From positions 1,903,151 through 1,967,150 of the forward strand of contig CAJINV010000007.1 of the NCBI GenBank assembly GCA_905178155.1: a stretch of 64,000 bases of DNA. The letters are read 5' to 3'. Origin of the DNA: Amoebophrya sp. A120. Taxonomy: Eukaryota; Protista; Dinoflagellata. Positions 12,163 to 59,085 of the stretch are shown here, piece by piece. Every line of letters begins with the position of its first letter. Within the stretch, counting starts at the first letter, position 1. A program made the position numbers and the translations under genes. The notes beneath the pieces were generated by a model. That model made no database searches and had not been told where the DNA came from. It saw only the letters and a list, made by a program, of their open reading frames with translations.

Positions 12163-15100
12163 ATGGGTTCTTGCCTCGGCACGTGTCTCGCCAGCTGCTT
12201 TGGCGTATGCTACACAAAATCTTAGCTCTCCACCATCACCATGATGATCGCCATACAAAAGTTTTTTTCACTGCTGTGCAAGATGAAGAAAAGGAATTTA
12301 CGGAACGTGAATGGATCGCCATCACCATCACCATCGATCATTCGCGTCGAGTAAATATAATTGGTGTTTTGCATATAATGTATGAGAAAAAAAAAACACA
12401 GTGAGAGCGAGGAACAAGCTCCTGTGGAAGAACAACAACAAGGTTTTCCGTAGTTGCATAAAGCAGTTGCATGGGGAAATGCCTCACCTCCGGCCACGTC
12501 AAGAAAGACTCTACGATGCGGAAGATGTTCGCGTTTCTGCAGCTCTGGAACATCGTCTGGCTGTTCATGTACCGCTGGCTTGCACCGCATTATCAAAAGG
12601 AAAAATCCCCCCTCTCCATACTGAAAAGGTATATTTTTGGAAATTTGTGATGCTGATTTGTGGTCACATTGCAAGAAGGCAACTCCGCAGGCTCCGTCGC
12701 GTTTTGTCATGCTCTTGGGCCTACGGCCGCGCCGCTGTTTATCATGCTAAGCGCCCAGGCCGAAACCCCTCTACTCACACTTGATATGGGCCTGTAGTGC
12801 TCTCCAGCAAGAAAGCTCGGACTTGTGTGCACAAATCCAGCATCGGAAGTTTCGTTTTGATATGGGTTGGGCGGATTTTTCCTTTTGATACGCATGTCTC
12901 GAAGTTCCCGCTTTTCAACCACTTTTTTCTCTTCGAGTTTGGGATCATGGAATGCAACAAAGCAGGACGAGATGATCTTCATGGTGGTAATGCAAGAAGT
13001 GCGACTGCCCCAGGTGGTCTATCCTGTGCAAAATTATCGTACTCGTACTAATTGCAATCATGCATGACGAATCCTGTTTCTTAGCGAAATCAGCATTACA
13101 AATTCCATTTTTCCTTCTGGAAAAAATTGTATTGCGATTTATACTGGTGCGATACTTTTGCAATGCATATGGTCCAGATCAAAGCAAGATCACGGCTTGT
13201 TTTATGCTTGAGAATTACGAAGTAATTCGTTAGCACCAGTGTTGAGTCCATGGAAAAGAAGAGTCGTCTGCTCTCGTCTTCGTCTCGTCCATGTCTTCGT
13301 CATAAGATCTAATTGGTGGGTCGCGCATACCGCAAATAACGCGACGGCACAGGCAAGCGCTCTAGTTTCGTACTGGCCCAGTCTCGGGCGTCTAAAGTCT
13401 CTTACTAGACTAGAAATAGTAAGAAGTTGTTCACGTCAAGAGATCTGGGCTCCTGGCTCGGTTTCCGCATTACATGCGACGAGAGCGGCAACCTCGCAAC
13501 GTCTCTGCCTAGAGAAAAGCCCACTATGGCGCCCAAGTCGTTTTTGCGCAAAATCGAGTGCTCGTTTTGCAGCCAGAAGCGGTTGGCTCACACACCGCGC
13601 AACACTTCGCCCGCGTGTCCGAATTCTGAAGCCTGCAAAGGCGAGTGCTACTACTTCGCGAAAGACGGAGATTTGCAGACGGTGAAGAAGCATCGCACCT
13701 TCGTAGAAGCGACTTACCCCCTACCGAGGCTTCGCCTCGAAGACGCGAGCATCTGCGTCGACTGCAATCTTTGTAAGTTGTTCCCCGACTCCAGAAAGCG
13801 ATCCTGGGTATTTGATAGAGAAGTGGTCGAAGCTTCAAGCTTTGCTTCCAGCGTGGAAGACGATCCGGCATCAGCTCTCAGAACTCTGAAGAAGGCGAAA
13901 GCTTCGTACGAATATTCTGAGAAGTCTCCTCCTACATCTCTTCCGCGAAACTTAGGCAGCTCAGCTCTTGCAGACAAGCAGTCGCCCGCATCTTCTGAGA
14001 AGAATCCGGAAGCTTAAAGCAAAAGACATGCCGTCGCCGTCTGGATCCTTGTCTCAGGGCGTTGCCATGGGTAGCGACACGACCGTCGCTCAACAGGTCG
14101 AACCCGAAACGGCCGTCATCGAGGAGGAAGTCGCCGCAATGCGCGCGCGCCAGTTACTGGACCCCAAGTCGGTCGACTACCCGTTGCCATTCGACAAAAC
14201 CGGGACTGTGCACCGCCCAGACAACTTCGAGTGGATCCCGAGCGACACGATCTTCACCAAGCACGATGTCAAGTCCGTCGCTGTCAAAATGTACACCGAC
14301 AAACAAAGGATCACGGTGGTCCGACGATAACTGACTTACGACGGAGAAGCAATCACTTTGCGCTCCAAGGTGCTACTTTGTCTTTAATCTGTCTTGCATA
14401 TCAAGAGCGATTCACGCATCCGCACAAGCGTGCGTCTTCAACTCCATTCCCATCTTCATTCTCGAAGGTTCAGACCGAGCATCCGGCATACATGGCTGAC
14501 TCCCACGGCGACATGATTCAGAACGTCATCCAGCCCACTGAGACCCAGAGGGCCTGGAAGTGGGAAAACGGCAAGCACATCCGGCGCCTCCGCGCGCTCA
14601 CCATCGTCAGCAACGCACTCGATTACGCCACTTGGGCATACCTGGCGTTTTCCGATTTTCAGGACATCGAGTTGATCGCCAGCATGGCGGAGACAATCGG
14701 ATACGTCCTTGCGGACCAGTCCCGCGGCAAGGCGAAGTTGTGCATGCAGGTCCTCAAAGACTGGCTAGAAGTCCGGTTGGACGACATTCCCGATGGGAAA
14801 GCACCCGACATCGCTATGCGCAGTGCACTTTTCGACTTGAGCGTCGTGCTCTGCCCGCCCTTCGCAAACGCCAGCAAGTGGAAGTCCGCCTTTTGCAGAG
14901 CCAGTTTTGACCTGATCCCGCCCATTGCTACAGTGAGGTCCGTGGATGAAAGCCCGATGATCATCGTAGCGAGGACGCAGGATTATGTAAACGAGATTCA
15001 TGAGAAGAGACAGACTGACTTAGAGTTAGGAAAAGCTTTGCCCGGGCGCGTTGCTGACCAGGAAGGAATGTTGTAAGTCTGCGAAATTCATTTTCAGTGT

Positions 15101-18100
15101 TTTTGTTGAGACGAAAAGTCATCGACGTGCATTTTTTTGAAAAATGTATGCTGGCACTCCAAGAATAATTAAAATTTAATACGATTCCGCGACGCGGTCA
15201 GCTCAAAGCAGTGAGTGAGCATGTCAGCCGAGTTTGTTCGCCGTCACAAGCAAGATCTATGCCACTGCGTTACGATCTACCCGGAGCCTTTCCACGAGAG
15301 AGCATCTCCCTTTCGTCAAAAGTATTATCTTGAGCGAGAATTGTCATCACATGATAACAAACTCTCCTTCGTCTTGTAGTAAAAGTTATTAGTGCCCACC
15401 ATGACGGAACTCGTCTGCTGTGCGTGCTTTGACAAAAAAGATGAGGCTCTCTTCTTCATCAAATGCGCTGGCGCAGACTCCGCCACAGCTTGCGCCAAGA
15501 GGATCGGCATACATTTGCAAACAATGCGAAAAGGACAACGGCGCCATGTCCCACGGACACTTCCACACCGTCAACGTCCTCGACCCAGTTAAAAGCCGCT
15601 GTAAGACATGCAACGTAGCCAAGAACAAAAGCCGCATGAAGCAGGTAGCTTTTCGCTGTTTTCATCATTCTTGTTGCGTGCAGCGTTCATCGTTGTTTTC
15701 CGTCAAATTGGAATTCTCATGTCCCCACCGCACTCCTTCTCAGGTAGAAGATGAGTTGGAGAAAGCGGCTGGCGACAAAAAGGCCATCCAGCTGATAACG
15801 CAAGAAGAAGACTGGTTCCCGGAATGGGTCTGCATGAGTCAAGAAGACAAAAAGGAAGCGCGCCGCGAGTTGAAAAGACCCGCGCTTCAGGAGGTCGACG
15901 TCTCAAAGCTCAACTCACATGACCTTGCCATCGCACAGCAAGCACAGTCAGCGGCGTCTGCGGCCGCAGCCACCGGCGCGAACGCAGCCGCGTCGGAAGT
16001 CAGCAAGACCTTCAAAGAAATGAAGCGAATGAAAGTCGAACACAAAAAGACGAGGCTGATGCTGCTGCCCAAGCACAAAGGAAGCTTTGCCACCTACAAG
16101 AAGTTTCTGAGTAAGGTAGTGACTATTTGTTTTTCTTTTTGCATGACGGTAATGCTAGGCACTTACATTGCGATCGCACATAACTGCTCATCATTCTTTC
16201 CCAAGGTGGTCTTGCACTTCGACGGACAGCCGGTCGCGGTGCTAGCCAAGCGCCACCGCTTCCTCATCTCTTACATCGAGGACTCGTCAGCGCGCTTCTT
16301 GTCCAAGGCACAGCAGAACTCGGAGCCGGCATCCAATCTGTGCTACGCAGCCTACTTCTCCATTCGAAGTAGTGTTTTGTTAGACCTGTGAGCATGGCTT
16401 GTCTTCAGGCAGCCGGGTCCGGGCAAATTTCGACCATTAAAATCGGCATAAAAAACCACTAATATAAAAGTTGGGGCGGGTTGTGTTTCATTGGCTACGT
16501 GGCCTGCCTGGCAAGGGGCCCCATTTTGTTGCCTTCCCATACGTGGCGCGTGGCGCCGAGGAAGGACGGGCCGGGCCCCACCGGCTTTGGTGTTTTTGTG
16601 CCTCCACGGCCCCCGGGGTGTTTTGTTTGAGTTTTTGCCCGCCTCTCAAGCGCATGCACGCCGCGTGCCTTTTCTCTTTCCAGCTCCCGGGCTGCTTTCG
16701 CCGGGCTCCACCTGGATGGCAGCTGGGCCGGTGGGGTCTTCGGCCAGTCTATGTGGCCTCGCCGCGTTTGGGAAGGGGCGACGCGCGCTGGTGGCTTTGG
16801 CGTTTCGACAGGTTTCGTCCCCATCGGCATTGGCGCCGTCCCCCAGTCGGGGTCTTTTCGGAGGGGCGTCGCCGTTTGTTGATGGCCGACAGGGAGTGGT
16901 GGTTGTTGCGAAGGACTGCTGGGTTTGCAATAAACCCAGCAGTAACCTTCGCAATAACCTTTGCAATAATTGTTGCATTAAAAATGCAATAAAATGTGCT
17001 TTAATTTGTTTTCATTGAAATCCTTAGGGATTTCAGTGTTTAACAAATTAAAGCAAATTTTAATGCAAATACTAAACAAAAATTAAACTTAATTTAAACC
17101 ACAAATTACACCACTTTTAAAGCAAAACAACAGGGCCCGGCGAGTGCAGGGGGGGGCGTCGCCTCCGCGCCGCGGGGGGGTGTTTGGCGCGATTATTTCG
17201 GCAAGCAAGACCCGAGGTCCGCAGGTGTGGAAGCAGCCGGCATTTGTCCGGTGTTGCGCCGGATTTGGCCGGCGCGTCCGTGTCGCTTTGGTGTTTCTGC
17301 TGAAGGTGGGGCTGGGGTTGTCGTGTTTTTGCCCTCGGCCGGTTTGTCCTCGTGGGGCTTTGTTGGCCCCGCATTTTTTGGGGGCGAGGTGGACAGGGGC
17401 CAATGGCTCACCCGATCACCCCCATCCCGGCCCCGTTCCAGCTTGATTCCATCGAAACCCATAGGACCGGGGCGGCCGGGCCCCCCTGCCTTGGTCATGG
17501 CCAAGCCGCGCGGCGTTTTCGGTGTGCCCTTTGTGGGGTTTGGGGCCGGCTCTGTGGAATCAAAGTCATAACTTCGGCCAAGAAATTAAAGCATTTTTAT
17601 GCTGACACTACACCGGGCAGCTTGCCCGGGCCCGGCAGGCTGATTGTCTGTGTGCAGTTGTAGATTTGTGAGCATGCGTTCTATTCTCACCGCGCCCGTC
17701 TTCTCTAGGTTGCCATCGAGAAATCAAGCTCACGTCGCACATCTCCGAAGCCAAGAAAGCTCTGTGGTTCATGTTTTTCCAGCCACGCTTTTCGTTCGTC
17801 ACTGCCTGTAATTTGTCGAGCCCGTCCATCATGTCGGCCCTCATGAACGTCATTGAGTCCGACACGTCTAGAAAGCGCACGCAGCAGGATCAAGGTCAGG
17901 GTGGTTATTACGGCAAGTCTCAGAACAACAACGGCAAGGGCAGCTCGACTTTCTACCCGGCACAGCCCGCTTACGACTACTGTCCCCAGGTCCCATCCTA
18001 CACAACGCCACAGGCAGCAGCTCAGGGAGGAGGCGGCAATGCCTCCGGCATGACCAAGGAGCAGAAGCAGGCCGAAATCGCGCGTATTCTGAGCCAGGTG

Positions 18101-21100
18101 GTCAACAACCCCCAAGGAGCAGAGCTGAATTTTGAAGCTGCAAAAAAGATCGATCGTGGCCTCTCGTGCAAATTTTTCGAGGCGAACGGTCATTGCCGCA
18201 GTTGCTACATGGCAGGCTTTACGTTTCAAAAGAAACATGAAAAAGGCCTGAAAAGTTGTGAACTCGCAGGCACGTCTTTGCTGGGGTAATGCAAAGCGAG
18301 TGTCTTCGTAAGAGTTTCGCTCTGGCTGCATAAGAAACCCATTCTCAGGCATCCCCTGCCATATTATCTGTGCGAACTGCAAGTCGGCCAAGCACTGGCA
18401 GTCCCAATGCACAGCTCCGTCGGCAAAAGGCAAGCCAGGAGGTGGAAAGCCAGGTCAGCAGCAGCAGCAGCAGGGTCCGCCCATGATGAAAGGTGCTCCC
18501 CCAGCGCAAGCATACGCCCAGGGCGTCCCTGGCGCAAAGGGAGGGCCGCCGAATGTAATGCGCGCCCCGTCGTGGTAGTCAACGGCTTGAACAGCTCGCC
18601 ACATGTACAGGAAATCAGCTGTAAGATGAAACTAGATCGACGCTTTTTTGTTTGTGTTTCCAGTGGCATCGATGCTGACACTTAATTGCCATCCCATTCG
18701 CGCCATCGCTCAGTCAGGAGCTGCTTTCATACAGTCTGGCGCTCTGTTCACATTCGAAGTGTGCTTCTCGTCGTACTTTTCGTCATATTGCATGTTGGTG
18801 CGCATCGTTGTAATCTTTGATATGGCCCTTCGCTACAGATCAGACCACCGGTCGGCGTTCTTGGCAACTGCTCTCACATCAGATCAGCCGAAGGATGTCG
18901 TTGCTTCAGATGAACCCCAAAAGAGCGGCGAGCTCAGCTCTTGCAACTGAGTACGCTCAGGAGCGCGAGAAGGCAAATCCCAAGCCTCAGAAGAAAACGA
19001 AGGCAGACTCCGACGCAGTCAAAAAAGCGCTCGCAGAAGCAGCTGTGGCCGACATTGAGCCAGACGAGGCCCCTTTGTACTTAGCAGAAGGCACTTCTTG
19101 GCGTGATTTAGATGATCCATCACGTAGCATCGTTTCTTCTAAATTCCTTTTCGTCTCATCTGTATTTTTTTCTCAGGTAGCATAGCACAGGCTCCAGCAG
19201 GGGGCAATCAAGCAGTGCCCGCGCTGTCCAAGTCAAAAAGCACTTCGTCCGCCAGCAGCGACTTCGTCTTCGCCGAAGCCGTGTCAGATTTTGAAAGCTT
19301 GAAGCCACCTGCATCGTCGGCGTCATCAAGTTCAAAGCCCCAGGTCGCAGTCGTCGCGCCGGCGGAGAGAAAAGCCGCGGCAGCATTGAGCCAGCACATG
19401 TCCTCCGGCATGCCATCGCGTGAAGCTGATGACTCGAAGTTGAAGGGTCAGATGAAGTCTTCCGAAGTTTTCTCTCAGAAAGATTCTACTGAAGTTAGCA
19501 CTTTCCCACAGGGTCCAAAGTGGTTCGATGCTTTCCCGTTACGCGACGACGTAAGAAAGCAACTTCTCAAGTCGTCTTATGTTTTTGCAAGCAGTAGCAT
19601 CGCACCGTCTTCGTGTAAAAATTTTACGAACATTTTAGCAGTTGTAGTTCCTCGAGTGTGTAGACAACTCGGAGTGAAGTTATGGCCACTCACCAATGAG
19701 CTGGGGCGCAGTTTGTTTTTCGCGACCTTTGCTACTTACAAGTCGTGCCATTTCTCGCACTTGAACGACAGAACGAATAAAGTCAACTGGTCGGCGTTCA
19801 AAAGCCTAAGTGCAGCCATCGGAGCTTACAACTCCTGTCGTCCAGAGTGTGACACGTATTCGCTACGCTACAAAAGCAGACCCTTCGCACGCATCTGGGA
19901 AGGATTCAAACGCAATGCAACTTTGCCTCTAAATCAGACCTACAAACTTCAGCCCACTAGATACCAAGTAGACTTAGTCCTCACAAAAGCGCGCCAGGAG
20001 TCCCACATCCACTGTTGTCCTCCCGGGTTCCTGTCTCATCAGCCTCCAAATTATTTGGAACCTTATTTAAATTCGAAGCAAGCCCTCTCGGCGGCGCAAG
20101 ACTACCAAACTGCGCTTCTGGCAGCGATGCAGTTCTACGGCGTCCGTCGAGGAGCCGAGATGCGGGAGTTGCTAACCGACAGCCTAGCTCCGAAGTATCT
20201 TTTTCCCGACGCCCCAAAGGAGGCGGAGCGTTACTGGTGCTTGCAAGTAGTCAAGGCAAAAAATGACGTTTATGCGCAAGGCAATTTTTGCGTTTTGCCT
20301 CTGTTTTTGACACCGCGCGCCACAGCTTGGATGCGCTGGGCTGGGGCTTTCGTCCGATTCTTTTTCAAAAAGGAGTACTTCGCAGGGAGTTGCAGTTTAT
20401 TTTTCGTAATAGGCAGCACGCGCATCAAATCTCGCGGCACTCCCTTGTCGCAAGATTGCCTCAGAATAAAGCTAAAAGCACTGCTTGGGCAGTATCTACT
20501 CCCGAAAAGCAAAAAACTGCCCGGCCCAGTCGCGTTAAGACGAGCAGGAGCCACTCGCGTGGCCTCCATGGATAGAGCAGTGGCTTATAATCAGGGTGGC
20601 TGGAGAAGCAACAAGATGTTGGATGCCATTTATGCCCCCTTAACACGCGAGGACTTAGCGCGGTCAATGCAAAAGCATTTCCCAGAGTCAGCAGCTCTGG
20701 CTCACTTACGGCGCGCAATAGTTAAAGTTGAAGAAGCTTATGTGAAGAACGCTTTCAATTTAGGCAGTCTCCTCATCGGCCTGCAAGACATCCCAGTGAG
20801 TGTACCGCGCGAAACTTTTGCGCGTCTAGCGCCAGGGCTGACAAGGGCAGCCAAGTTGAACTCTTTGAAGGATGGTTTTCACAACGTCTACTACCGTCTT
20901 GGACTAAAAAAATAATCATTTCGCTTTCCCACTGCCTTGTCGCTGACAAAGCACCGTCGGGAGTTTGGCCCAGTCGTTTGCTCTCCCATTCAGGCACGCA
21001 GCCGTCTTTCTGTTGTCGTTCACTTCAATTGTCAACCACCAGTCACTAGCGTGGAGAGAAAGCCCGGCAAATGGAGCAGCCCCGGGAGTACGTGGCCGAG

Positions 21101-24100
21101 AGCGACCCAGCAGTTCCCACGAGAGAAGGGAGAGAACTAGGCATAGTTCCAGACCCAGGCATGTCCATTCGGGACTACATAAGTATGGGACTGCCTGCCG
21201 CCAACTTGTCCGCCCTGGAGTTTCTGCAGTCGCAGGAAGGGCCCGACGACAAGTGGCGGCCGGTCGAAGACTACCTCACGTGGCAGGGGACCGCGCTCAA
21301 TCCCTTCATGTTGGCACGCTACGGGCTCAGCCCTGCCTTCATGGAGCGTTTTTTCGGTGGTGTAAAATTCGACGTGACAGTGGACGACTTCAAAGTCAGC
21401 CAGGTCAAGAATTACAGCGGAGCCACGACCTACGAAGATTATTTCACCGAAGAAGTCTGGCGCTTTATCCACAGCAAAAAAGTGGTAGTGTACGAGGACG
21501 ACGAGCCCCCGGATCTTATGATCGCCCCGGGAACAATACTTAAGCAAAGAGCGAAGTACAGGTATGTTCTGTTTCTCATGACACTCATGTCTTCTAGCGC
21601 ACGTCATAGCCCGCGTCATCTTCTCATCATCACTTAGGTTGGTGGCCGACTGGTCCAGCCCGCAAGTAGCCGCCAGCCAGATGCTGTACAGTACACCAGT
21701 CCAGTATAGCTGCTGGCGGTCTCTCTTCGAAAAGCTGTGTCCGGGAGCTCTGGCGTTTGGGCTCGACCTGGCCGATTGCTACGCACACTGGCCAGTGCAT
21801 CCCAGTCAGCGTCGCCTACTAGGACTAGACATACCGCAGACGGGAGCGAAAGCGTGCCATTGCTTCGTGCCATTCGGTATTTCCTAAGCTTTTCATGCTT
21901 GTTTTCACACTTGTGACTACGCATATGCTTCGAGTCTCATAGTCGCGATTTCTCGGCAGGTATATCACCTGCCCCCGGCAAGAATGATGAGGCGATCAAG
22001 GAACTCACTCGTATCCAGTACCGGGCCGGATTAACGGCCTGGCTACTGGATTACGTCGATGATATAAGGGGCGTCCTCCCCGCCCCGTGCAGCACGTCAA
22101 TGGAGCACACCGCGCGCGAATTCCAAAAAACATTCTTCATGTTTTCGCTGTTCGGTTGTCAGCTACATGAAAAACCAGGAAAGAAAATCCCGCCGACAAC
22201 AAAGCTTCCATGGCTCGGGTTCGAGTGCGATACGGAAGCAATGACTATGGCGATAGAAGAAGAGCGCAGAGAGCAGTATGCGATCGACGCGCAGCAGTTT
22301 CTAGATGAGGTGTCTTCTTCTCCCTCGCTAACAACGACAGCCAAAGCGGCGGCAAAGATTTGCGGCAAACTGCAGTCAATCACCTTCATCCTAGACGGCC
22401 CGCTCAGGGGCCTGCAAGACGCGCTCAACGCCTCCGGCTGCTACCGGCTGTGGCAGTCGTCGCGGGATCACAGTCCCAAAGTCTCGCTGTCGCACGAGGT
22501 CACTCAAGACCTGAAGTGGTGGGTGCACGAAATCAACCAAGTGCCGAAACGCAAGCTCCACTACTACGGAGGCAGGTGCTTCCTGTGGGGCCAGCATGTG
22601 TTAGAATTCGGAACGCAATTTTTGAACTCCATCCCGCCGTCGGCCTTTCTCGTCATCTATGGCGACGCCGCAACGGAAACCGGATGGGGCGGCACATGCA
22701 GAGGAGTGCACTACCAGGGTTTCTTCCCGCAGTGGATCAACCAGCACGACATAAACGCGAAAGAAAGTGCAACCCTCCTCATCGTCTTGGAGTGCATGGA
22801 AGCGCGCGGCGAGCTCCCACCAGGAATGCTCGCGCTGTATTATACGGATAACTTCACAGCAAAGAAGTTCGCAAACAAAGGCAAGCACACCAACCCGGCA
22901 TACTGGGTGGTTCTGCACCAGAAGACTGAAGTCATTGCGCCAGCGCAACCAGCTGGAGCTCATCGGGGCCAAAGTGCGCGGCTTGCGCAACATCGTTGCT
23001 GATTGTCTCAGTCGTTTCGACGATCACGTCTTCTCTTTCTGTGATCCGGAGCCCGAGCGTTGCCTAAACAACCGGGCATGGAGTCACATCATGAAAAAAC
23101 TGCCCGACATCGCCATCGAGTGCTTTGCGTCGTTAGACGACTCCGACAAGACTTCGCGCCTAGCCACGAAGTTCACGTCCCAAAACATGCCGCTCCAGAA
23201 CTTCGAGCAAATCAGCAAAGAAAAGTCGCGGTGGTTTCCACCAGGCGACATCGTCTACCCCGCAGTAAAATTTTTGCAAAAAACAGCACAGGGCATCCCG
23301 CTCGCGAACCGTCCGAAGTTCGCGGCTTTCCTTCCAAAAGCAGGAGGCAAATTTGCTCCGATGACATCCTCCTTCTACAGAGCAAAAATCTCGCACAAGA
23401 GGGGCGCTAAGATCTTCAACAGCAAAAATCTCGAAAAGGTCGACATGCCGGCCGACGATGACTACGAGGTCTTTCTTTCGGTGCCCATCGAGCAATGGTC
23501 TTCCACCACAAATCTCATCACGATCGAGAATCCACAGCACACGAAACTACTTCAAAACGCAGTCTTTCGCAGGTCTCTCAATCTACCAGGAAACACCGTC
23601 TGCAAATGCATCGCCCAAGCGTCGGAGCAGTTGATCGCGCATTTGTGTTGCACTGATCCGGTCGCGCCTAAAGGAGTAGCAGAGTTGGTCTTTGATAGGT
23701 GGCCATGTGCCAACGCTTATCCCTTACCAGCTTCCCAGAAGCCATGCAAATCGTTTCAAGTCATGCATCCGATTGCTAACGTTCACTCCATGTGTCATCC
23801 AGGGCCGCCGAAGGCGGATAGAAACTACGACACATACCAGGAGCGCCTAGATGCTTTCAATTCATCAATGTACAGCTTAGCAGTCTATTGCAGCAGCAAC
23901 GGGGTCAAGTCTGTGGCAGTCCCGTTACGCATTGGCTGCGGTCTCAATGGCGGCAAGATGTGTGATTACGCTCTCACTTTGGGCCGCTTCTTCATGAAGT
24001 GCCGAAGCTTCGGCGTCATTGTGCGACTCTATGAGAATCCCGACTCTCTGTGAGCATATTCATGCGCACGCTTTTTCGGCCCAAGAGCCGTCACAGTTGT

Positions 24101-27100
24101 CTACTCTTACCATCCCAAATGGTGCCCACTGTGCCCCATATGCGTCTGCGCGCAAGGAGTCGAACTCGTGTTCTTAGCACATTTGGTCGCAATGTGTGAC
24201 GGGTTCCTCGTAGCCAGGCGGCTAGTCGGATCGTATGGGTGCTGGGCAAACTACACTCTTCGTATTTCTCCAGGACGATAAATTTTATGCTTGAGAATTA
24301 CGAAGTAATTCGTTAGCGCCAGTTTTGAGTCCATGGAAAAGAGGAGTCGTCTGCTCTCGTCTTCGTCTCGTCCATGTCTTCGTCATAGGATCTAATTGGT
24401 GGGTCGCGCATACCGCAAATAACGCGACGGCACAGGCAAGCGCTCTAGTTTCGTACTGGCCCAGTCTCGGGCGTCTAAAGTCTCTTACTAGACTAGAAAT
24501 AGTAAGAAGTTGATAAAGCCGCTTTTTTCATCCCACCCACCTCGCCCTGTGAGGAAGTCACATACAGGGATTTTGTTCACTCATCGTCACTGTTCGTTGT
24601 GTGAGTGTGTCTATCGTCTATGCATGGAAAACGTCTTTTCCATGGTCTCGCCTTACGCTTCTCACTAGTCGCCACGAGCTCCGTTCAGCGTTGCGTCTGC
24701 GCGCAAGGAGTCGAACTCGTGTTCTTAGCACATTTGGTCGCAATGTGTGACGGGTTCCTCGTAGCCAGGCGGCTAGTCGGATCGTATGGGTGCTGGGCAA
24801 ACTAAACTTTTCGTATTTCTCAAGGACGATAAACTTTCAACAGCAAGCGACGGAGCGGGTGTTTCTCTCGTTCGCGATCCTCTTTCTGATCTTGATTTTC
24901 CTCTCCGCCTATCAAGTGTAAAAATGTCTGGGTCTGGAAACTTGTGATGCTGGGTGGCGTCTCATGATGAGGCTACAAATGCTGGCTCAGCATGACAAGT
25001 TTCTGAGCTCCTAGGTGTTGCCCCCTATTCTACTGCACGACAAACTGCGCTTCTGCATCACAGAAAAACGGAGCTCTTGGGTAACGTGCGTGACAGATTT
25101 AGCAGTCATGCCAGACAAGCATGACAAACATGAATTCTTCCAGACCCAGACACTTTTACAGTTGATACGGCCATCGGCGCCACGAAGATTGCGCTCAACA
25201 AGTTCTGGGGCGCGAAGCTGCTGACCCCGGTGTTTCTTCCGTTCCTATATCAAATGTAAAAATGTCTGGGTCTGGAAGAATGCAACTTGTAATGCTGTCT
25301 GCGGATTCTAAAAATATCTGTGTTGCATGAGCAGCAAGAGGACTCAGCTCTTGGCACGCGGAGAGGGCATTTCTCATGCGTAATTAGCATCGAGCTCGAG
25401 AAGCTCTCAAAAAATCTGTGATGCTAGCACCAGCATCACAGACCTCACGGGTCATGCAAAATGTGCATGACAAGTCCCGACTCTTCCAGACCCAGACATT
25501 TCTGCATCTGATATCCTATTCGCGTTTTTGATTCCGAACGACTTTTTCGGGCTGCAGTCGTGGCTGTACTACACCTGCGGGGGGGTCTCGTTGTTTTACC
25601 TGACCGCGCAAATGATGATTTTGTACGACTTGGGGCACAGCTGGAACAAAACCTGGGTGGAAAACGCGTTGGAAGCGCAGCGGGAGGCAATCGTGAACCC
25701 GAACGCGTTTCTCGGAGGGGGCGGTAATCGCAATCGGGACAACAATTCGCATTCCAACTTTTTCCGCCAATTTCTCCAATCCAGGCCAGGAATCCTGTGG
25801 TACTTGGGAATCCTCCTTGCGACCATCATCTTCCTGACGATCGCCGTCCTGGTATCATTTGTAAAAACGTCCCCACCGCATAGTCAAGTTTGGAATCTAG
25901 CAACACATCAAATCTCCAAGTTTTGGGAGCTGTGCATGACAAGTCTCCCTCTGCAGTGTAGTGCTGATTGGCAAGAGAAGCTGCATGAGAAAGTCATTTT
26001 CACATCCTGTTTATAGCATTACAGATTTTTCCAAAACACGACTGGAAATTCCTCTCATGCAGCTGCGCATTACAAATGTTCCTGTCATTGCGCATTTGCA
26101 TGACAACTCTGGTGTGGGGACGCTTTTACTCAGGATACCTGGCCGTGATTTACCTTCCGTTCGTCGTGTACGCGAATGAACCCAACCAGTACGTCATCCT
26201 GATTTCGCATTTTCTAAGCGTCGCCTTGTTGATCCTCTCCGCCAGCGACTGGTGCAAAAACGGTGCCATTCTACCCAGTGCACTACTGGTAGCATACTTC
26301 GCGTGGCTACAGTGGCTGATGGTGCTGCAGCGCCCGGGGATAGTGGTCAATGGCCCCGCCGCCCAGCAGGGTCGTGGGTCTTATCTTGGAGGTGCGCGGC
26401 AAGCAGATGAACACCCCCAGCACCAAGAAATCCTGAGCGAGCCCCGTGGGACGATGCCGCCGACTTCTACTTCTTTTCTCCTACCTCTCTCGGCACAGAG
26501 ACGATCATATATTTCCAACGGTGTTATCCGGGCTTTTGCGGCTGATAGTGTTGTACTTTCTCCACAGGAGCAACATCATGCAGTGTCGCACCAGAATGAT
26601 CTTCTTCAATCCAGAATCATCAGCTACGAATACAGCGATCACGTCCCGATGACCGCAGATCGCTATCTCTCCTGGTGGGTCGGGTTGACGATCATGCTGG
26701 TTTGTTTTTCCCTTTTTCTAAGGAACCCGAGCCTGTTGCAATTGGAAGACGCTGAAACGGCGGAGGACCGGAACTTCGGCGCTCGGAATGGGGAAGAGGA
26801 CTTGGAGCAGTCTGACTCCAGCGACGAGGAGCAGCAGGCCACGGCTGTGGTTGGACCGGAAGACGGAGATGATCATACGACCGGAGATCTTCAAGATGGA
26901 GACGCCGGTGGCCGAGAAGAGAACACCTCCAACCGTATCCAAGAAAAAAACTGTGTTGGTGTAACTATCTTTGGCAGACAGCATCACAAATTTGCTCTAC
27001 ATGACAGAGAAAGCCTGTCACGCGTGGCTTGTAAGGGAAAACACACATGAAAAGAGAACTTCGTGGCTATCTGGCATGACAGGTGTAACTTTGTTGCGTG

Positions 27101-27681
27101 TTCTACATTACAGATTTACGCTTACGCGACAGCTTTTTTCTTGCATAAACCGTCGGCGCCGTTTAATCACGACGGGGGGACCGCCGAAGGAAGAAACGCT
27201 CTACTTCTTGACGATCCACGCGGTATGGGAGTGTCAGGATTGAAATTGTCAAAGTTGAAAATGAAATAGTTTGTCATGCATAAAATGCATGACGCGAGGC
27301 GCGTGTGTTGCAGAGCAGGCAAGTGAGGCCGATTGTAAGCCTGTTTGGGCTTAGCGCTCGAGCTGCTGAAGTAGTATGACAAAATCAGTCTTCTTTGCCT
27401 AAGCAGCATGGCAAACTGGATTTAAGGACTACCAAAATTTGTCATGCGCCACTTGGAAACTGGGTTGCAACTGGCATCCATTTTATGCATGACAAATCAT
27501 TTCAACTTTGTCGATTTCAACTCTGACGCATCCATACGCGGCTTCGGCGTTTTACTTCCGCTTCCTGCTGTACCAGAGACAAGACTTGGTTGGCTACTGC
27601 ATTCTAGCGGTCGGCTTGTACGCAAACATAGTCCTGTTTGGCTGGGCGCTGGTTCGCCCGCAGATTTACCCGGATGAGTAG
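12163..27681 (+). CDS. Serinc/TMS1 (serine incorporator) family multi-pass membrane protein, interrupted by 7 introners and the YR retrotransposon
   Basis: N-terminus MGSCLGTCLASCFG; reconstructed motifs CFQQQATERVFLSFAILF, LNKFWGAKLL, FYLTAQMMILYDLGHSWNKTW, NGAILPSALLVAYFAWLQW and C-terminus FGWALVRPQIYPDE* match the Serinc consensus. Confidence 0.85.
12591..12890. mobile_element. Introner family A
   Basis: TATCAAAAGGAAAAATCC...GGATTTTTCCTTTTGATA TIR, TSD CGCAT. Confidence 0.9.
13020..13169. mobile_element. Introner family D (150 bp)
   Basis: TAT...ATA, TSD TGGTC; highly similar to 32324-32473. Confidence 0.9.
13200..13429 (+). repeat. Split direct repeat A1
   Basis: 230 bp; about 4 mismatches (counted by eye) versus 24283-24512. 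Confidence 0.95.
13526..15076 (+). CDS. Retroelement 5' ORFs (Cys-rich Zn-finger-like N-terminus plus helical domain), structure unresolved
   Basis: MAPKSFLRKIECSFC...CPNSEACKGEC...CVDCNLC (13526-14017); ORFs 13968-14330 and 14231-15076 with protein-like composition. Confidence 0.5.
15401..18578 (+). CDS. Gag-like protein with Cys-rich fingers and a CCHC zinc knuckle, multi-exon
   Basis: Frame-compatible introns 15645-15743, 16116-16205, 16369-17708 (GT-AG) and 18216-18348 (GC-AG); C-x2-C-x4-H-x4-C knuckle CANCKSAKHWQSQC at 18369-18410; stop at 18576-18578; the 5' part appears frameshifted. Confidence 0.7.
16405..17643 (+). other. ~1.24-kb imperfect rod-like fold-back inside a Gag intron
   Basis: Symmetric pairing about the loop at ~17024-17026 (GCTTTAATTTGTT..GAAATCC/GGATTTC..AACAAATTAAAGC); ends CAGGCAGCCGGGTCCGGGCAA / TTGCCCGGGCCCGGCAGGCTG; several internal helices checked, with many G-U pairs. 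Confidence 0.85.
18817..20915 (+). CDS. Tyrosine recombinase (YR) of the retrotransposon
   Basis: GVRRGAE (catalytic R), KAKND, VALRRAGAT (HxxR box with H replaced by V), GGWRS...AIY (catalytic Y at 20631); upstream exon joined by the GT-AG intron 19124-19176. Confidence 0.88.
21071..24053 (+). CDS. Pol-like polyprotein: RT - RNase H - DIRS-type adenine methyltransferase-like - Macro domain (2 introns, one apparent frameshift)
   Basis: KYRLVADW, GLDLADCY, VPFGISPAP, YVDD (22052-22063), WLGF; RNase H motifs GDAA, INAKE, YTDN, NIVADCLSR; MT-like IECFAS...WFPP; Macro IAHLCC..KGVAELVFDRWP...SVAVPLRIGCGLNGG; introns 21562-21637 and 21877-21959; +1 shift near 22905. Confidence 0.9.
24141..24282 (+). 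repeat. Split direct repeat B1
   Basis: 142 bp, near-identical to 24692-24833. Confidence 0.95.
24283..24512 (+). repeat. Split direct repeat A2
   Basis: Near-identical to A1; directly abuts B1. Confidence 0.95.
24692..24833 (+). repeat. Split direct repeat B2 (right terminus)
   Basis: Near-identical to B1; followed by CTTT and then Serinc exon sequence. Confidence 0.95.
24910..25167. mobile_element. Introner family F
   Basis: TATCAA.TGTAAAA.TGTCTGGGTCTGG TIR; TSD CCGCC/CGGCC (1 mismatch); frame restored (FLSAIGATK). Confidence 0.88.
25248..25513. mobile_element. Introner family F
   Basis: Same TIR type as the 24910 copy; TSD TCCTA. Confidence 0.9.
25853..26137. mobile_element. Introner family G
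   Basis: TATC..GTAAAAACGTCCCCA / TGGGGACGCTTTTAC..GATA; TSD CCTGG. Confidence 0.88.
26936..27147. mobile_element. Introner family E
   Basis: TATCCAAGAAAAAA...TTTTTTCTTGCATA; TSD AACCG; reverse-complement homolog of 32555-32763. Confidence 0.9.
27224..27536. mobile_element. Introner family C
   Basis: TATGG..GTCAGGATTGAAAT TIR; TSD CGCGG; similar to the 29136 and 31444 copies. Confidence 0.92.
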
Positions 27682-47541: not shown

Positions 47542-48864
47542 TCAGCATACTTGGTCTGGGTCTGCCGGGTCAGTCTCAATTCGGTCCTTTCCACAGCATT
47601 TGAATAATCTCGAAACTACTTCTCTCAGTTTATTCTTCATCTTCTGTTCGTCGCTTCTTGGAATTTCTGGAATCAGAGTGATCGCAACATAGGGAATTTC
47701 GTTTGGAAAAAACTCGTGGTATTGGGCCTCGTTTCCATGCAACATCCTTGCTGGTTTAGTGATTATCTGCACCGAGGAGGACATCACGTCATTGCGCATG
47801 GCTGGCGTGTGGGTACTTGGTCTCGGACTTTTTGATGATGCATCATTTCCAAGTGCCTTCCCTCCATCACCAACGTTCGTGCGGTCGCCTGTTTGTAATT
47901 CCTTGCCAATATCTCTACCTTTTTTCTTTTTTCGGTCGCGCTCATACCTCCGGGCGGCGATCGCGTCTTCGGCTTGCACTTCTACGCTGTGTTCTTCCGG
48001 CTTGTTGTCATGCAACTTCAGCGCGGCTTGCACTTCTTTGTCGACGACAAGCTGCAGCGGTGGCGGAATATTCAAATCCAGAAACGTGTCCTGCTCGTGC
48101 TCGCGGTCTTCTTCTGGCGACGGAAGATAATCGAGGTCAATATTTTTGCCGCAGTCTTCATTTTCTTCAATCGGGTCGTAGGTTTCTGTTGCTCCACCAA
48201 TTTCATTTTCTGTACTAGAAACTCTAGCACGCCCCTTTTGATCTCCAAACACCAGTCCGCTTTTCAGTCCCCGCTCCGCGTAGCAATGCATAAGAGCGAC
48301 CAACCCCAGGTCGTAGTTGTAGACTTCCGCAAGGCCCGCCGTGCGGAGTAAGTGCTCCCGGTGTTTCGCGACATACTCGCCGCTGCGCTTACCTATCAGC
48401 GAATAGCAGACCACCTCGATGCTGATTCTCGTGTCAGGGGCGGCGTTTTTGCGCTCCCGCGTCCACAGCTCGAAATCCTGGAGCGACATACTGTCTCTCA
48501 AGTAAGACACGGCCCTTTCCTCCCCAGTTCGGCAGTCCACCAGAATCAGTTTTTGCCTCCGCGTGTTCGTCTGAATCTTGTCCAACAACCCCTCCGTGCT
48601 GATGTTCGGCGCTTCCCGGATACTCGGGCGAATGGTGCGGTAGAAAAACTTCGTGGCCGCCTCCAGCCGCTCGGTGTTGGTTGAATCCGCGGTGAGGGTC
48701 GGAACAGAGGAGGAGGAGGTGGAACTTGTCGAGCCTTTGCGCTTTGTAGTACTGGCGACGCCGCCGGGGACATTAGGAGGTGTTTTTGTTGGAATGGTAT
48801 GGGTTTTCTCGGGTGAGACTTTTTGTTTTTCACCTCCTTGTGCAGCGAGTGCCATTGTGACCAC
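47542..48864 (-). CDS. Rhodanese-like domain protein (probably inactive)
   Basis: LILVDCRTGEERAVSYL...VVCYSLIGKRSG...VYNYDLG; Ser at the usual catalytic Cys position. Confidence 0.7.
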   Translation of the reverse strand: MVTMALAAQGGEKQKVSPEKTHTIPTKTPPNVPGGVASTTKRKGSTSSTSSSSVPTLTADSTNTERLEAATKFFYRTIRPSIREAPNISTEGLLDKIQTNTRRQKLILVDCRTGEERAVSYLRDSMSLQDFELWTRERKNAAPDTRISIEVVCYSLIGKRSGEYVAKHREHLLRTAGLAEVYNYDLGLVALMHCYAERGLKSGLVFGDQKGRARVSSTENEIGGATETYDPIEENEDCGKNIDLDYLPSPEEDREHEQDTFLDLNIPPPLQLVVDKEVQAALKLHDNKPEEHSVEVQAEDAIAARRYERDRKKKKGRDIGKELQTGDRTNVGDGGKALGNDASSKSPRPSTHTPAMRNDVMSSSVQIITKPARMLHGNEAQYHEFFPNEIPYVAITLIPEIPRSDEQKMKNKLREVVSRLFKCCGKDRIETDPADPDQVC

Positions 48865-57600: not shown

Positions 57601-59085
57601 TCATGCAAAGTCGCATTCTTTAGTTTTACGTGCGCAGCTGCAAATTTTTACTTCGAATACGTGCTGCTCCGGGAGTTTGAGTTTGCTCCGCTCGTCCTGC
57701 TGGTTCGCAAACATAGACTTTTTTGTCGCCCACTGCTCACAGGCGTGCAAAAGGGCGCGTGGTTTGTTTATTGTGGCGAAGGGGGTGCAAGTTACAGACG
57801 AGGACATGCTGTTCTCCATTTCATCGGGGTCGCTTTCCTCTTGCGTCGTGTTATTTTTAGTACCCGGCCTCCCAGCAGACGAAGAGCTACTAGCAGACAT
57901 CTTTATTCCTCTCTTTACCGCCTCTGCCGCGTCCTCTTCTGCCTCACAGGCCGGGCAGGTGCACCAAAAGCCCCAATTTCGGCGCAGCTGCGCGCGCCGT
58001 TCGTCGGCGCCCGGGAAGAGGGCGATGTAGGGGAAGGTTAATTCTTCACCTTTCCGGATCTTTTTCGTCGCTCGCACGCGGGCGAAGCAGTAGTACTCTG
58101 CGGGTTCTTGCAGCGCCAGCGGCTGGAGGTCCTTGCCTTGTTTCTCGTGCATGGTCTTCTGCTTCTCTTTGTTACAGCAATTCTGCGGCAGTAAACTCTC
58201 GTCCACCTGCTCCCAGCCGCAGTTGGGCGCGCAGCTGTGGTTGAAGCGAGACAGGGTCAGAAAGAGGCGCCGCCGCCCGGCCTGCTCGATCGTGTTCGTC
58301 TTCGCAATATCGCGGACTCGCAGCCGCTGCCGCTGCAATTTTCGCAGTTGCTTTTTCTCCTGGACCAGTTTCTTCCTCCGTTGCGGATCATCTACCGCAG
58401 CTTTATTTCTTGACGATAATGGCACAGCCTGATTCTCTACAACATTTTTAGAAGAAGATGTTATTTGATCCTCCTCCTCCTCTTCCTCTTCGGTTGTTGT
58501 ATACCCACCTCCGGAGTCGCTCGTCTCCCGCCCGAGGTCTTGTCCCTGTAAATCCAAAATCGCCTTCTGCGCCTTCTCCGGTAGGTTCCGGAATTCTTCA
58601 AAGAAGTAATCAAACGCGTCCACTTTTTCCCGCTTCTTGATCGCCAGCTCCGCGATTTTGCGCTTGGTCGCCTCCAAAATCGGGAATTCTTCCAGGATCA
58701 GTTGTCCGATTTCCAAGTCGCGTTTCGCCAACACTCCAAACCCCTTCCCCGGGATCTCCTTCACTTCGAAGGTGTCGTGCAAGTCGCCGCCGTAGTACTT
58801 TCCGTTCATCACAAAGCAGTGTCGTTCGTCCTCGCGGTCGTAGTAGAAATGCTTTTTCATTTCCTGGCCGTCTTCGCTGAAGACGTCGGAAAAGTTGGCG
58901 AGCTTGTCGATCTTCTGAAACTTATCGACCCGCTTCTGCGCGATCATCTCTTCCGTGCCCGTGCTGTCGTCTTTCAGGATGGACTTGATCATCAGCTCCC
59001 GCCACAATTGGTACCGCTTCTCCGCGTCTTGGAGCATCAGGCTGTGGATGTGCTCGGGCTGGGGGAGCATCTTCACCTGGGTCAT
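57601..59085 (-). CDS. SET-domain lysine methyltransferase (SMYD/Set5-like)
   Basis: GKGFGVLAKRDLEIGQLILEEFP, SRFNHSCAPN, ATKKIRKGEELTFPY, post-SET WGFWCTCPAC. Confidence 0.9.
   Translation of the reverse strand: MTQVKMLPQPEHIHSLMLQDAEKRYQLWRELMIKSILKDDSTGTEEMIAQKRVDKFQKIDKLANFSDVFSEDGQEMKKHFYYDREDERHCFVMNGKYYGGDLHDTFEVKEIPGKGFGVLAKRDLEIGQLILEEFPILEATKRKIAELAIKKREKVDAFDYFFEEFRNLPEKAQKAILDLQGQDLGRETSDSGGGYTTTEEEEEEEDQITSSSKNVVENQAVPLSSRNKAAVDDPQRRKKLVQEKKQLRKLQRQRLRVRDIAKTNTIEQAGRRRLFLTLSRFNHSCAPNCGWEQVDESLLPQNCCNKEKQKTMHEKQGKDLQPLALQEPAEYYCFARVRATKKIRKGEELTFPYIALFPGADERRAQLRRNWGFWCTCPACEAEEDAAEAVKRGIKMSASSSSSAGRPGTKNNTTQEESDPDEMENSMSSSVTCTPFATINKPRALLHACEQWATKKSMFANQQDERSKLKLPEQHVFEVKICSCARKTKECDFA

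Follow-up and report, generated by a model that had tools for sequence, protein, structure and literature searches.

The analysed window, a 64-kb stretch of the genome of Amoebophrya sp. A120, contains a Ngaro-like tyrosine recombinase (YR) retrotransposon (Table 1), which is apparently intact and single-copy, has several GT-AG introns, and carries its YR ORF ahead of the putative RT/RNase H region. Its split direct repeats are ordered A1-ORFs-B1A2B2, with 98% identity between A1 and A2 and 179 bp lying between A2 and B2. This split-repeat arrangement is the one given for Ngaro retrotransposons in the consulted part of PMC8547959. The YR ORF itself had no Pfam match, a word-indexed search with it returned nothing, and a PDB profile search gave 0 matches. 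Among its 14 distant homologs, 3 of the 13 scanned matched Phage_integrase (two above the cut-off), and the residues K349, R442, W463, and Y473 are invariant. YVDD and D..E..D motifs were identified by eye in the element; they had no Pfam or relevant PDB match and are taken by us to be reverse transcriptase and RNase H motifs. The last ORF of the element (22755–24053) had no Pfam match, and its end presumably is macro-domain-like, as judged by eye.

Removal of the predicted intron at 16369–17708 keeps a frame of 456 codons open. Without a 1,239-bp insertion and one copy of the duplication that flanks it, this intron has a length of 95 nt and resembles a neighboring 90-nt intron with the same donor. 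The heptamer array analysed here is located in the core of this insertion.

Table 1. Coordinates of the retrotransposon, the insertion within its intron, and the features of the insertion (window positions).
Feature	Position	Strand	Details
Host Ngaro-like YR retrotransposon	13200–24837	+	A1 13200–13429, B1 24141–24286, A2 24283–24512, B2 24692–24837
YR ORF of host element	19215–20915	+	Distant homologs, Phage_integrase matches
Predicted GT-AG intron of host element	16369–17708	+	1,340 nt
Non-coding multicopy insertion, likely non-autonomous TIR DNA transposon	16405–17643		TIRs, duplication, depth
Flanking duplication, left copy	16399–16404	+	TTGTCT, direct repeat
Flanking duplication, right copy	17644–17649	+	TTGTCT, direct repeat
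Left terminal inverted repeat	16405–16426	+	22 bp, begins TCAG
Right terminal inverted repeat	17622–17643	-	Ends CTGA, overlaps 17-nt hairpin at 17613–17629
Left subterminal inverted repeat	16443–16463	+	Heptamer-like words 41 and 51 bp from end
Right subterminal inverted repeat	17585–17605	-	One clean heptamer 51 bp from end
Left GC-rich arm	16471–16900		A-poor on +, AT skew -0.51
Right GC-rich arm	17126–17575		A-poor on +, AT skew -0.33
Hairpin H1	16901–16959		Local inverted copy (16901–16926) of units 1–3; 27 pairs, mean probability 0.96
Left array, seven heptamers	16927–17004	+	GC(A/T)(A/G/T)TAA, period 12, pointing to center
Hairpin H2	16985–17067		Units 6–7 and tip paired with far arm; 35 pairs, mean probability 0.96
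Central palindrome	17013–17038		11-bp arms (10 Watson-Crick, 1 G-T), 4-nt loop
Right array, seven inverted units (three clean, four degenerate)	17048–17123	-	Mirror register, pointing to center

Elsewhere in the window, host genes at 57601–59085, 47542–48864, and 25528–27050 gave SET (E 1e-10), weak rhodanese and serine-incorporator matches. Fifteen short repeats were listed between 5693 and 60163 (e.g., 27223–27538, 12590–12892, and 13020–13170), among them several introner-like families whose TAT..ATA ends resemble those of strain A120 introners as far as these are described in the part of PMC7789003 consulted. Introner-like families with different ends have the internal motif GCA(A/T)(C/G/T)ACA in common, with copies often 31–32 bp apart. 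Fifty of its 76 matches in the window lie within the about 4.0 kb of short repeats (borders set by hand), corresponding to a density of 12.5 per kb vs. 0.44, and the motif is a candidate common binding site for a factor that mobilizes or splices these repeats.

The 1,239-bp insertion and its copies

The insertion is bounded by terminal inverted repeats (TIRs) that match at 19 of 22 positions by Watson-Crick pairs and at one more by G-T, and it is flanked by a 6-bp direct duplication, for which the chance, computed for the window copy only, is about 5e-4. The duplication may have 5 bp instead of 6, because the near-identical copies of the insertion all seem to share position 16404. None of the six internal ORFs, which lie in the arms, had a Pfam match, although such a test has little power in a genome this divergent, and none of the 46 window ORFs scanned (18, 7, and 21) matched a transposase family. 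Of the tested features of TIR transposons, the insertion thus has TIRs, a flanking duplication, copies with common ends, and no detected transposase coding. It likely is a non-autonomous, cut-and-paste TIR DNA transposon; it fits this class, although its superfamily cannot be assigned.

The A-poor strand is the same in both arms, the opposite of what a decayed palindrome would show, and since the right arm is also A-poor on the + strand it is no mirror of the left one. None of the other 619 bins of 430 bp has an AT skew as strong as that of the left arm (maximum magnitude 0.38). Exposure of a single strand or RNA folding rich in G-U pairs might account for the A-poverty of the arms.

Contigs of one sample (runs X1 and X2) were aligned to positions 12900–25100. 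The stretch is present in 2 of 9 listed sequencing runs, with no RNA run among those that contain it; both come from this sample, which is possibly the source of the window itself and therefore not independent. The body of the YR element was covered at single-copy depth (43.2 in X1, 23.4 in X2), whereas insertion contigs, which begin at 16404 and end at 17643, had an about four-fold depth of 166.7 and 163.1 in X1 and of 86.1 and 103.2 in X2, bearing in mind that summed contig depth does not equal copy number. Because of this higher depth (about 165 vs. 43 in X1), the diverged copies described below, and the contig breaks at its ends, the insertion represents a separate mobile family. The array belongs to this multicopy insertion and not to the single-copy YR element, which counts against the proposal that a Gag or YR protein of the retroelement binds it. 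Even the flanking repeats, which are high-copy, received 0 and 1 reads from the RNA runs X4 and X5, respectively, and these runs are too sparse to gauge expression.

Two diverged contigs at single-copy depth cover 16611–16945 (45 other letters, 3 gaps) and 17042–17237 (28 other letters, 6 gaps). Their arms are 13–20% different or unalignable, and they end precisely at the core edges, which are also break points of the near-identical copies. Presuming assembly with k = 31, this pattern suggests a return of the diverged copies to the common sequence over 16916–16945 and 17042–17071, and the core would therefore be the best-kept part of the insertion. None of the 40 differences listed (of 200) falls in 16532–17082. 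At 17608, the window has C and the sole contig covering it carries T, at full depth in X1 and X2 alike, which is either a copy-specific letter or an assembly error.

The heptamer array

Seven heptamers GC(A/T)(A/G/T)TAA start on the + strand at 16927, 16939, 16951, 16963, 16975, 16986, and 16998, exactly where the original prediction had located them. The period of 11–12 nt ascribed to them holds for 12 nt but not for 11 nt: the intervals are 12, 12, 12, 12, 11, and 12, and the self-identity is 0.64 at lag 12 vs. 0.37 at lag 11. A seed-free chain statistic, defined as the longest chain of near-identical 7-mers (one mismatch) at a spacing of 10–13, linked 7 units, a value attained in none of 150 dinucleotide shuffles (maximum 4). 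By this statistic the array ranked first among 276 bins of the window, with a runner-up of 4, and no other cluster of the heptamer was found in the 64 kb (0.43 per kb outside the array). The left heptamer array is real and non-random.

On the facing arm, repeats at similar spacing had been proposed, of which three clean inverted heptamers (17048, 17060, and 17117) were found in mirror register, whereas the other four units (at about 17072, 17083, 17094, and 17106) are degenerate and were picked by eye. The right-arm units occupy the mirror positions of the left set around 17025.5, with deviations of at most 1 nt. The motifs of the left half lie on the + strand, those of the right half on the - strand, and all point inward. 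The center of the palindrome between them, 17025.5, is 1.5 bp from the midpoint of the element (17024). Among the differences listed, copies of the insertion differ inside the degenerate units at 17083, 17106, and 17110, and among the indels listed (12 of 22) are 1-nt indels at 17070, after 17034, and after 17079, because of which the spacing in the right arm is not strictly fixed.

Across the left units, five motif columns out of seven show no variation, and mismatches amount to 4 in 49 cells of the motif columns vs. 16 in 35 cells of the linkers. In simulated neutral tandem arrays, which were matched for total divergence and allowed for the choice of the block after the fact, an equally clean 7-column block occurred in 38 of 5,000 runs with a duplication tree and in 8 of 5,000 with a star tree; this simple null ignores context-dependent mutation and repair between hairpin arms. 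With conserved motif columns and drifting linkers, the array behaves unlike a plain neutral minisatellite, the outcome that the original prediction had set against itself.

Heptamer-like words recur 41 and 51 bp inside both ends of the element, and position 16456 is G in other copies, which improves the left end-proximal word. These end-proximal copies are statistically weak: their matrix score is 8.7, scores of at least 8 occur in the background at 1.23 per kb, and the end-proximal 23-mer match of 16 was reached by 13 of 300 shuffles.

Predicted folding and search for relatives

The array had been placed at the tip of a rod with about seven repeated internal loops. Such a series of seven loops was not confirmed on the + strand. 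The predicted fold is instead branched, with two strong local hairpins, H1 and H2, the former of which competes with the rod. On the + strand, which is the sense strand of the retroelement, the mean probabilities of far-arm pairing for units 1–7 are 0, 0, 0, 0.06, 0.01, 0.77, and 1.0; only units 6–7 pair with the far arm, whereas units 1–3 pair with their upstream inverted copy. When H1 is disallowed, the local energy increases from -98.3 to -43.9 kcal/mol. Mirror pairing exceeds that of shuffles only at 16405–16604 (z -5.7, -2.1, and -3.4) and at the tip, 16945–17023 (z -7.4), while 6 of the 10 mirror segments (16585–16964) are at shuffle level (z -0.9 to +1.0) and no continuous rod is formed. 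The impression of a rod is explained by the position of the tip palindrome so close to the midpoint of the element. A rod survives in one form only: RNA of the - strand, antisense to the retroelement, folds into an irregular rod over all seven units (0.5–1.0) when cut at 16925, and its outer duplex is matched by 13 of 300 shuffles vs. 64 of 300 on the + strand, but with 35 more bases included this rod is lost and H1 wins again. The sites also do not present one face of the helix as had been supposed, because with a 12-nt period they drift over the array by 164° at 11 bp per turn or by 274° at 10.5.

No relative of the insertion was found outside the source organism in metagenome and viral collections or in Rfam, where 0 families reached the gathering score and the 40 sub-threshold matches were mostly to generic miRNA hairpin models. 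In metagenomes, the exact 23-mer of H1 had 0 loci and the H2 arm pattern 10, none of them alike beyond the 14-nt match. In viral sequences, the H2 pattern had 0 loci and a three-heptamer pattern 91, which are alike only within the array and of which 44 lie inside an open frame. Six metagenome loci (L092, L093, and L098–L101) have a common repeated element of ~400–600 bp (80–85% alike) with an internal palindrome of ~75 bp, which is unrelated to the heptamer array. Scans with prokaryotic models, which are not relevant to a eukaryote, gave 0 sigma-70 promoters and 6 terminator-like matches vs. 3.2 ± 2.0 expected.

A literature search, with Repbase outside its scope, found no description of the 1,239-bp element, which does not imply its absence from print. 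Two short motifs had 0 matches in 13 of the 14 supplements of PMC12130899, whose displayed rows carried no sequences; 0 entries of length 1,237–1,241 occurred in one table of the same publication among the 19 of 58 A120 rows viewed, and the supplement of PMC7789003 had 0 matches to DIRS, Ngaro, or the terminal motif.

Candidate function and related systems

As a transposon-like insertion carries the motifs on both sides of its midpoint palindrome, they are likely protein-binding DNA sites of this insertion rather than RNA loops of the retrotransposon. Judged from the sequence, it is close to an even chance that the array consists of candidate double-stranded binding sites, arranged head-to-head, for a transposase supplied in trans or a recruited host factor. 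The opposite motif strands of the two halves are expected for the symmetry of a two-ended DNA element. The core may have arisen by duplication of units and a fold-back (inverted) duplication, after which the linkers would have drifted and selection would have preserved positions G,C..T,A,A. A transposase acting in trans, or a host factor that it recruits, would bind the motif runs, the proteins loading cooperatively along each run and winding by about 50° per site round the helix, and once bound they might help to assemble or pair the two ends of the element. Such cooperative binding is described, in the parts of the sources consulted, for Lemi1 proteins at the subterminal repeats of the Emigrant MITE (PMC1636448) and for the BED domains of Hermes at subterminal repeats (10.1101/2022.09.16.508221). 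Against this reading, the cited precedents are subterminal whereas the present array is central, and 4 of the 7 right-arm units are degenerate. A more specific version, in which a mirror-symmetric, bendable array folds the element at its midpoint and aligns its ends, served by an undescribed transposase family with TCAG..CTGA ends, is rather improbable; it is based on the midpoint position and the predicted curvature and would be a eukaryotic analogue of the central gyrase site of phage Mu.

The array might instead be an unbound passenger, an AT-rich minisatellite that was expanded by slippage and mirrored by fold-back at H1 and H2. Such a neutral origin, which we regard as somewhat unlikely, would agree with H1 being plainly a local inverted copy of units 1–3, with a right arm that is degenerate and variable between copies, with the abundance of palindromic TIR elements in the window, and with the recurrence of the same heptamer at 11–12 spacing in the 91 unrelated viral loci, those listed being simple tandem repeats. 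What counts against it is the contrast between motif and linkers in the simulations, the apparent convergence of the diverged contigs on the core despite their strongly different or unalignable arms, and the location of the tip at the element midpoint. The AT-rich core (GC 0.30) between GC-rich arms, the inverted arrays round a palindrome, and predicted curvature at 16960 and 17040 in the top 1–2% of the window (computed from wedge parameters) would also suit a captured host regulatory module, such as a bidirectional promoter or an origin-like sequence, that is bound by host proteins and not needed for end pairing; this is quite improbable, however, given that the window has no second heptamer cluster and that the six arm ORFs lack Pfam matches.

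Two further possibilities place the function in RNA. Processing of H1 and H2 into small RNAs, or a transient minus-strand rod that is displaced by H1, is unlikely. The region folds with z-scores of -11.0 (+) and -8.8 (-), far-arm pairing extends over all seven units in the minus strand when this is cut at 16925, and the arms, A-poor on the same strand, favor G-U pairs (whole-element MFE -590 on + vs. -507 on -). However, any inverted repeat folds well, H1 and H2 consist almost entirely of Watson-Crick pairs and form on either strand as well as in DNA, the local z of the arms is only about +2 to -2.7, and the Rfam search recovered no family at the gathering score. A long RNA rod formed by the YR retrotransposon, with the units as internal loops to which Gag or YR binds, is most improbable. 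The array does lie inside the predicted unspliced transcript of the YR element, but the insertion is multicopy and the retrotransposon single-copy, no continuous rod exists, far-arm pairing of units 1–5 is missing from the sense strand, and the sites drift in phase by 164°. This model is largely refuted. The original prediction thus placed the array in the wrong element and probably in the wrong molecule, and the iteron-like DNA array that it named as an alternative is the better reading.

As far as the cited excerpts describe them, Emigrant/Lemi1 and the hAT element Hermes resemble the insertion in their short TIRs, flanking duplication, lack of evident coding, several near-identical copies, and motifs in opposite orientation on the two halves (PMC1636448; 10.1101/2022.09.16.508221). 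They differ in that most motifs of the insertion are central, about 520–600 bp from the ends and round a midpoint palindrome, and that it has 1.24 kb and a low copy number, with no cognate transposase found among the window ORFs scanned. For hAT5/hAT6, a 5- or 6-bp target site duplication (TSD) and a hAT transposase partner are given in the part of PMC12730594 consulted; the length of the duplication would fit. IS3EU, for which the same source gives a 6-bp TSD and TAYGG..CCRTA ends, was excluded by the TCAG..CTGA ends of the insertion. Similarity by analogy exists to the central strong gyrase site of phage Mu, as described in the consulted part of PMC10052514, in that a central site could organize the pairing of ends, but there is no homology, and the present case is a motif array in a eukaryotic 1.2-kb element and not a gyrase site. 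Direct repeats of 11–12 bp in inverted halves are also known from foldback elements and plasmid iteron/parC-type arrays. The arrays of foldback elements lie in long terminal repeats, whereas the arms between ends and core of the insertion are not complementary. The tip palindrome as a junction of two elements was dropped as an explanation, the halves having no matching outer ends.

The right end of the insertion (17613–17643) is Helitron-like despite the TIRs and the duplication, with a 17-nt hairpin that ends 14 nt before the CTRR end; together with the 5′ TC and one G+T-rich strand, these are similarities to Helitron1/Helitron2 as presented in the consulted part of PMC3627910. The terminal words TC and CTGA follow from the TIR itself, and unlike Helitrons the insertion has symmetric TIRs at its extreme ends and a 6-bp flanking duplication. 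Helitron1 elements are not known to have a TSD or a TIR, and they insert at an A-T target. Helitron1 was rejected, despite the terminal words and the 3′ hairpin, since TIR and duplication are present and T lies on both sides. The terminal inverted repeats of Helitron2 are described as asymmetric, with the 3′ one 20–30 bp from the end (in the part of PMC3627910 consulted), and Helitron2 was rejected because the repeats of the insertion reach both extreme ends. Introner elements of Amoebophrya are, according to the sections consulted, likewise TIR-bounded non-coding insertions in introns (PMC7789003; PMC12130899). However, the insertion starts with TCAG and not TAT and lies inside a pre-existing 95-nt GT-AG intron instead of being an intron itself, which excludes an A120-type introner, and it had 0 matches to the introner-like motif GCA(A/T)(C/G/T)ACA, so that identity of the heptamer with this motif was rejected.

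If the array is indeed a set of transposase or host factor binding sites, it would offer a ready motif with which to search for the factor that mobilizes TIR elements in the introner-rich genome of a protist, and the mobilizing machinery of introner-type elements is left open in the part of PMC7789003 consulted. A central rather than subterminal array would also extend the known cis-anatomy of non-autonomous transposons. Should the array be a neutral relic, the locus would represent an ordinary nested insertion. Under either reading, the array should not be listed among the RNA elements of the YR retrotransposon.
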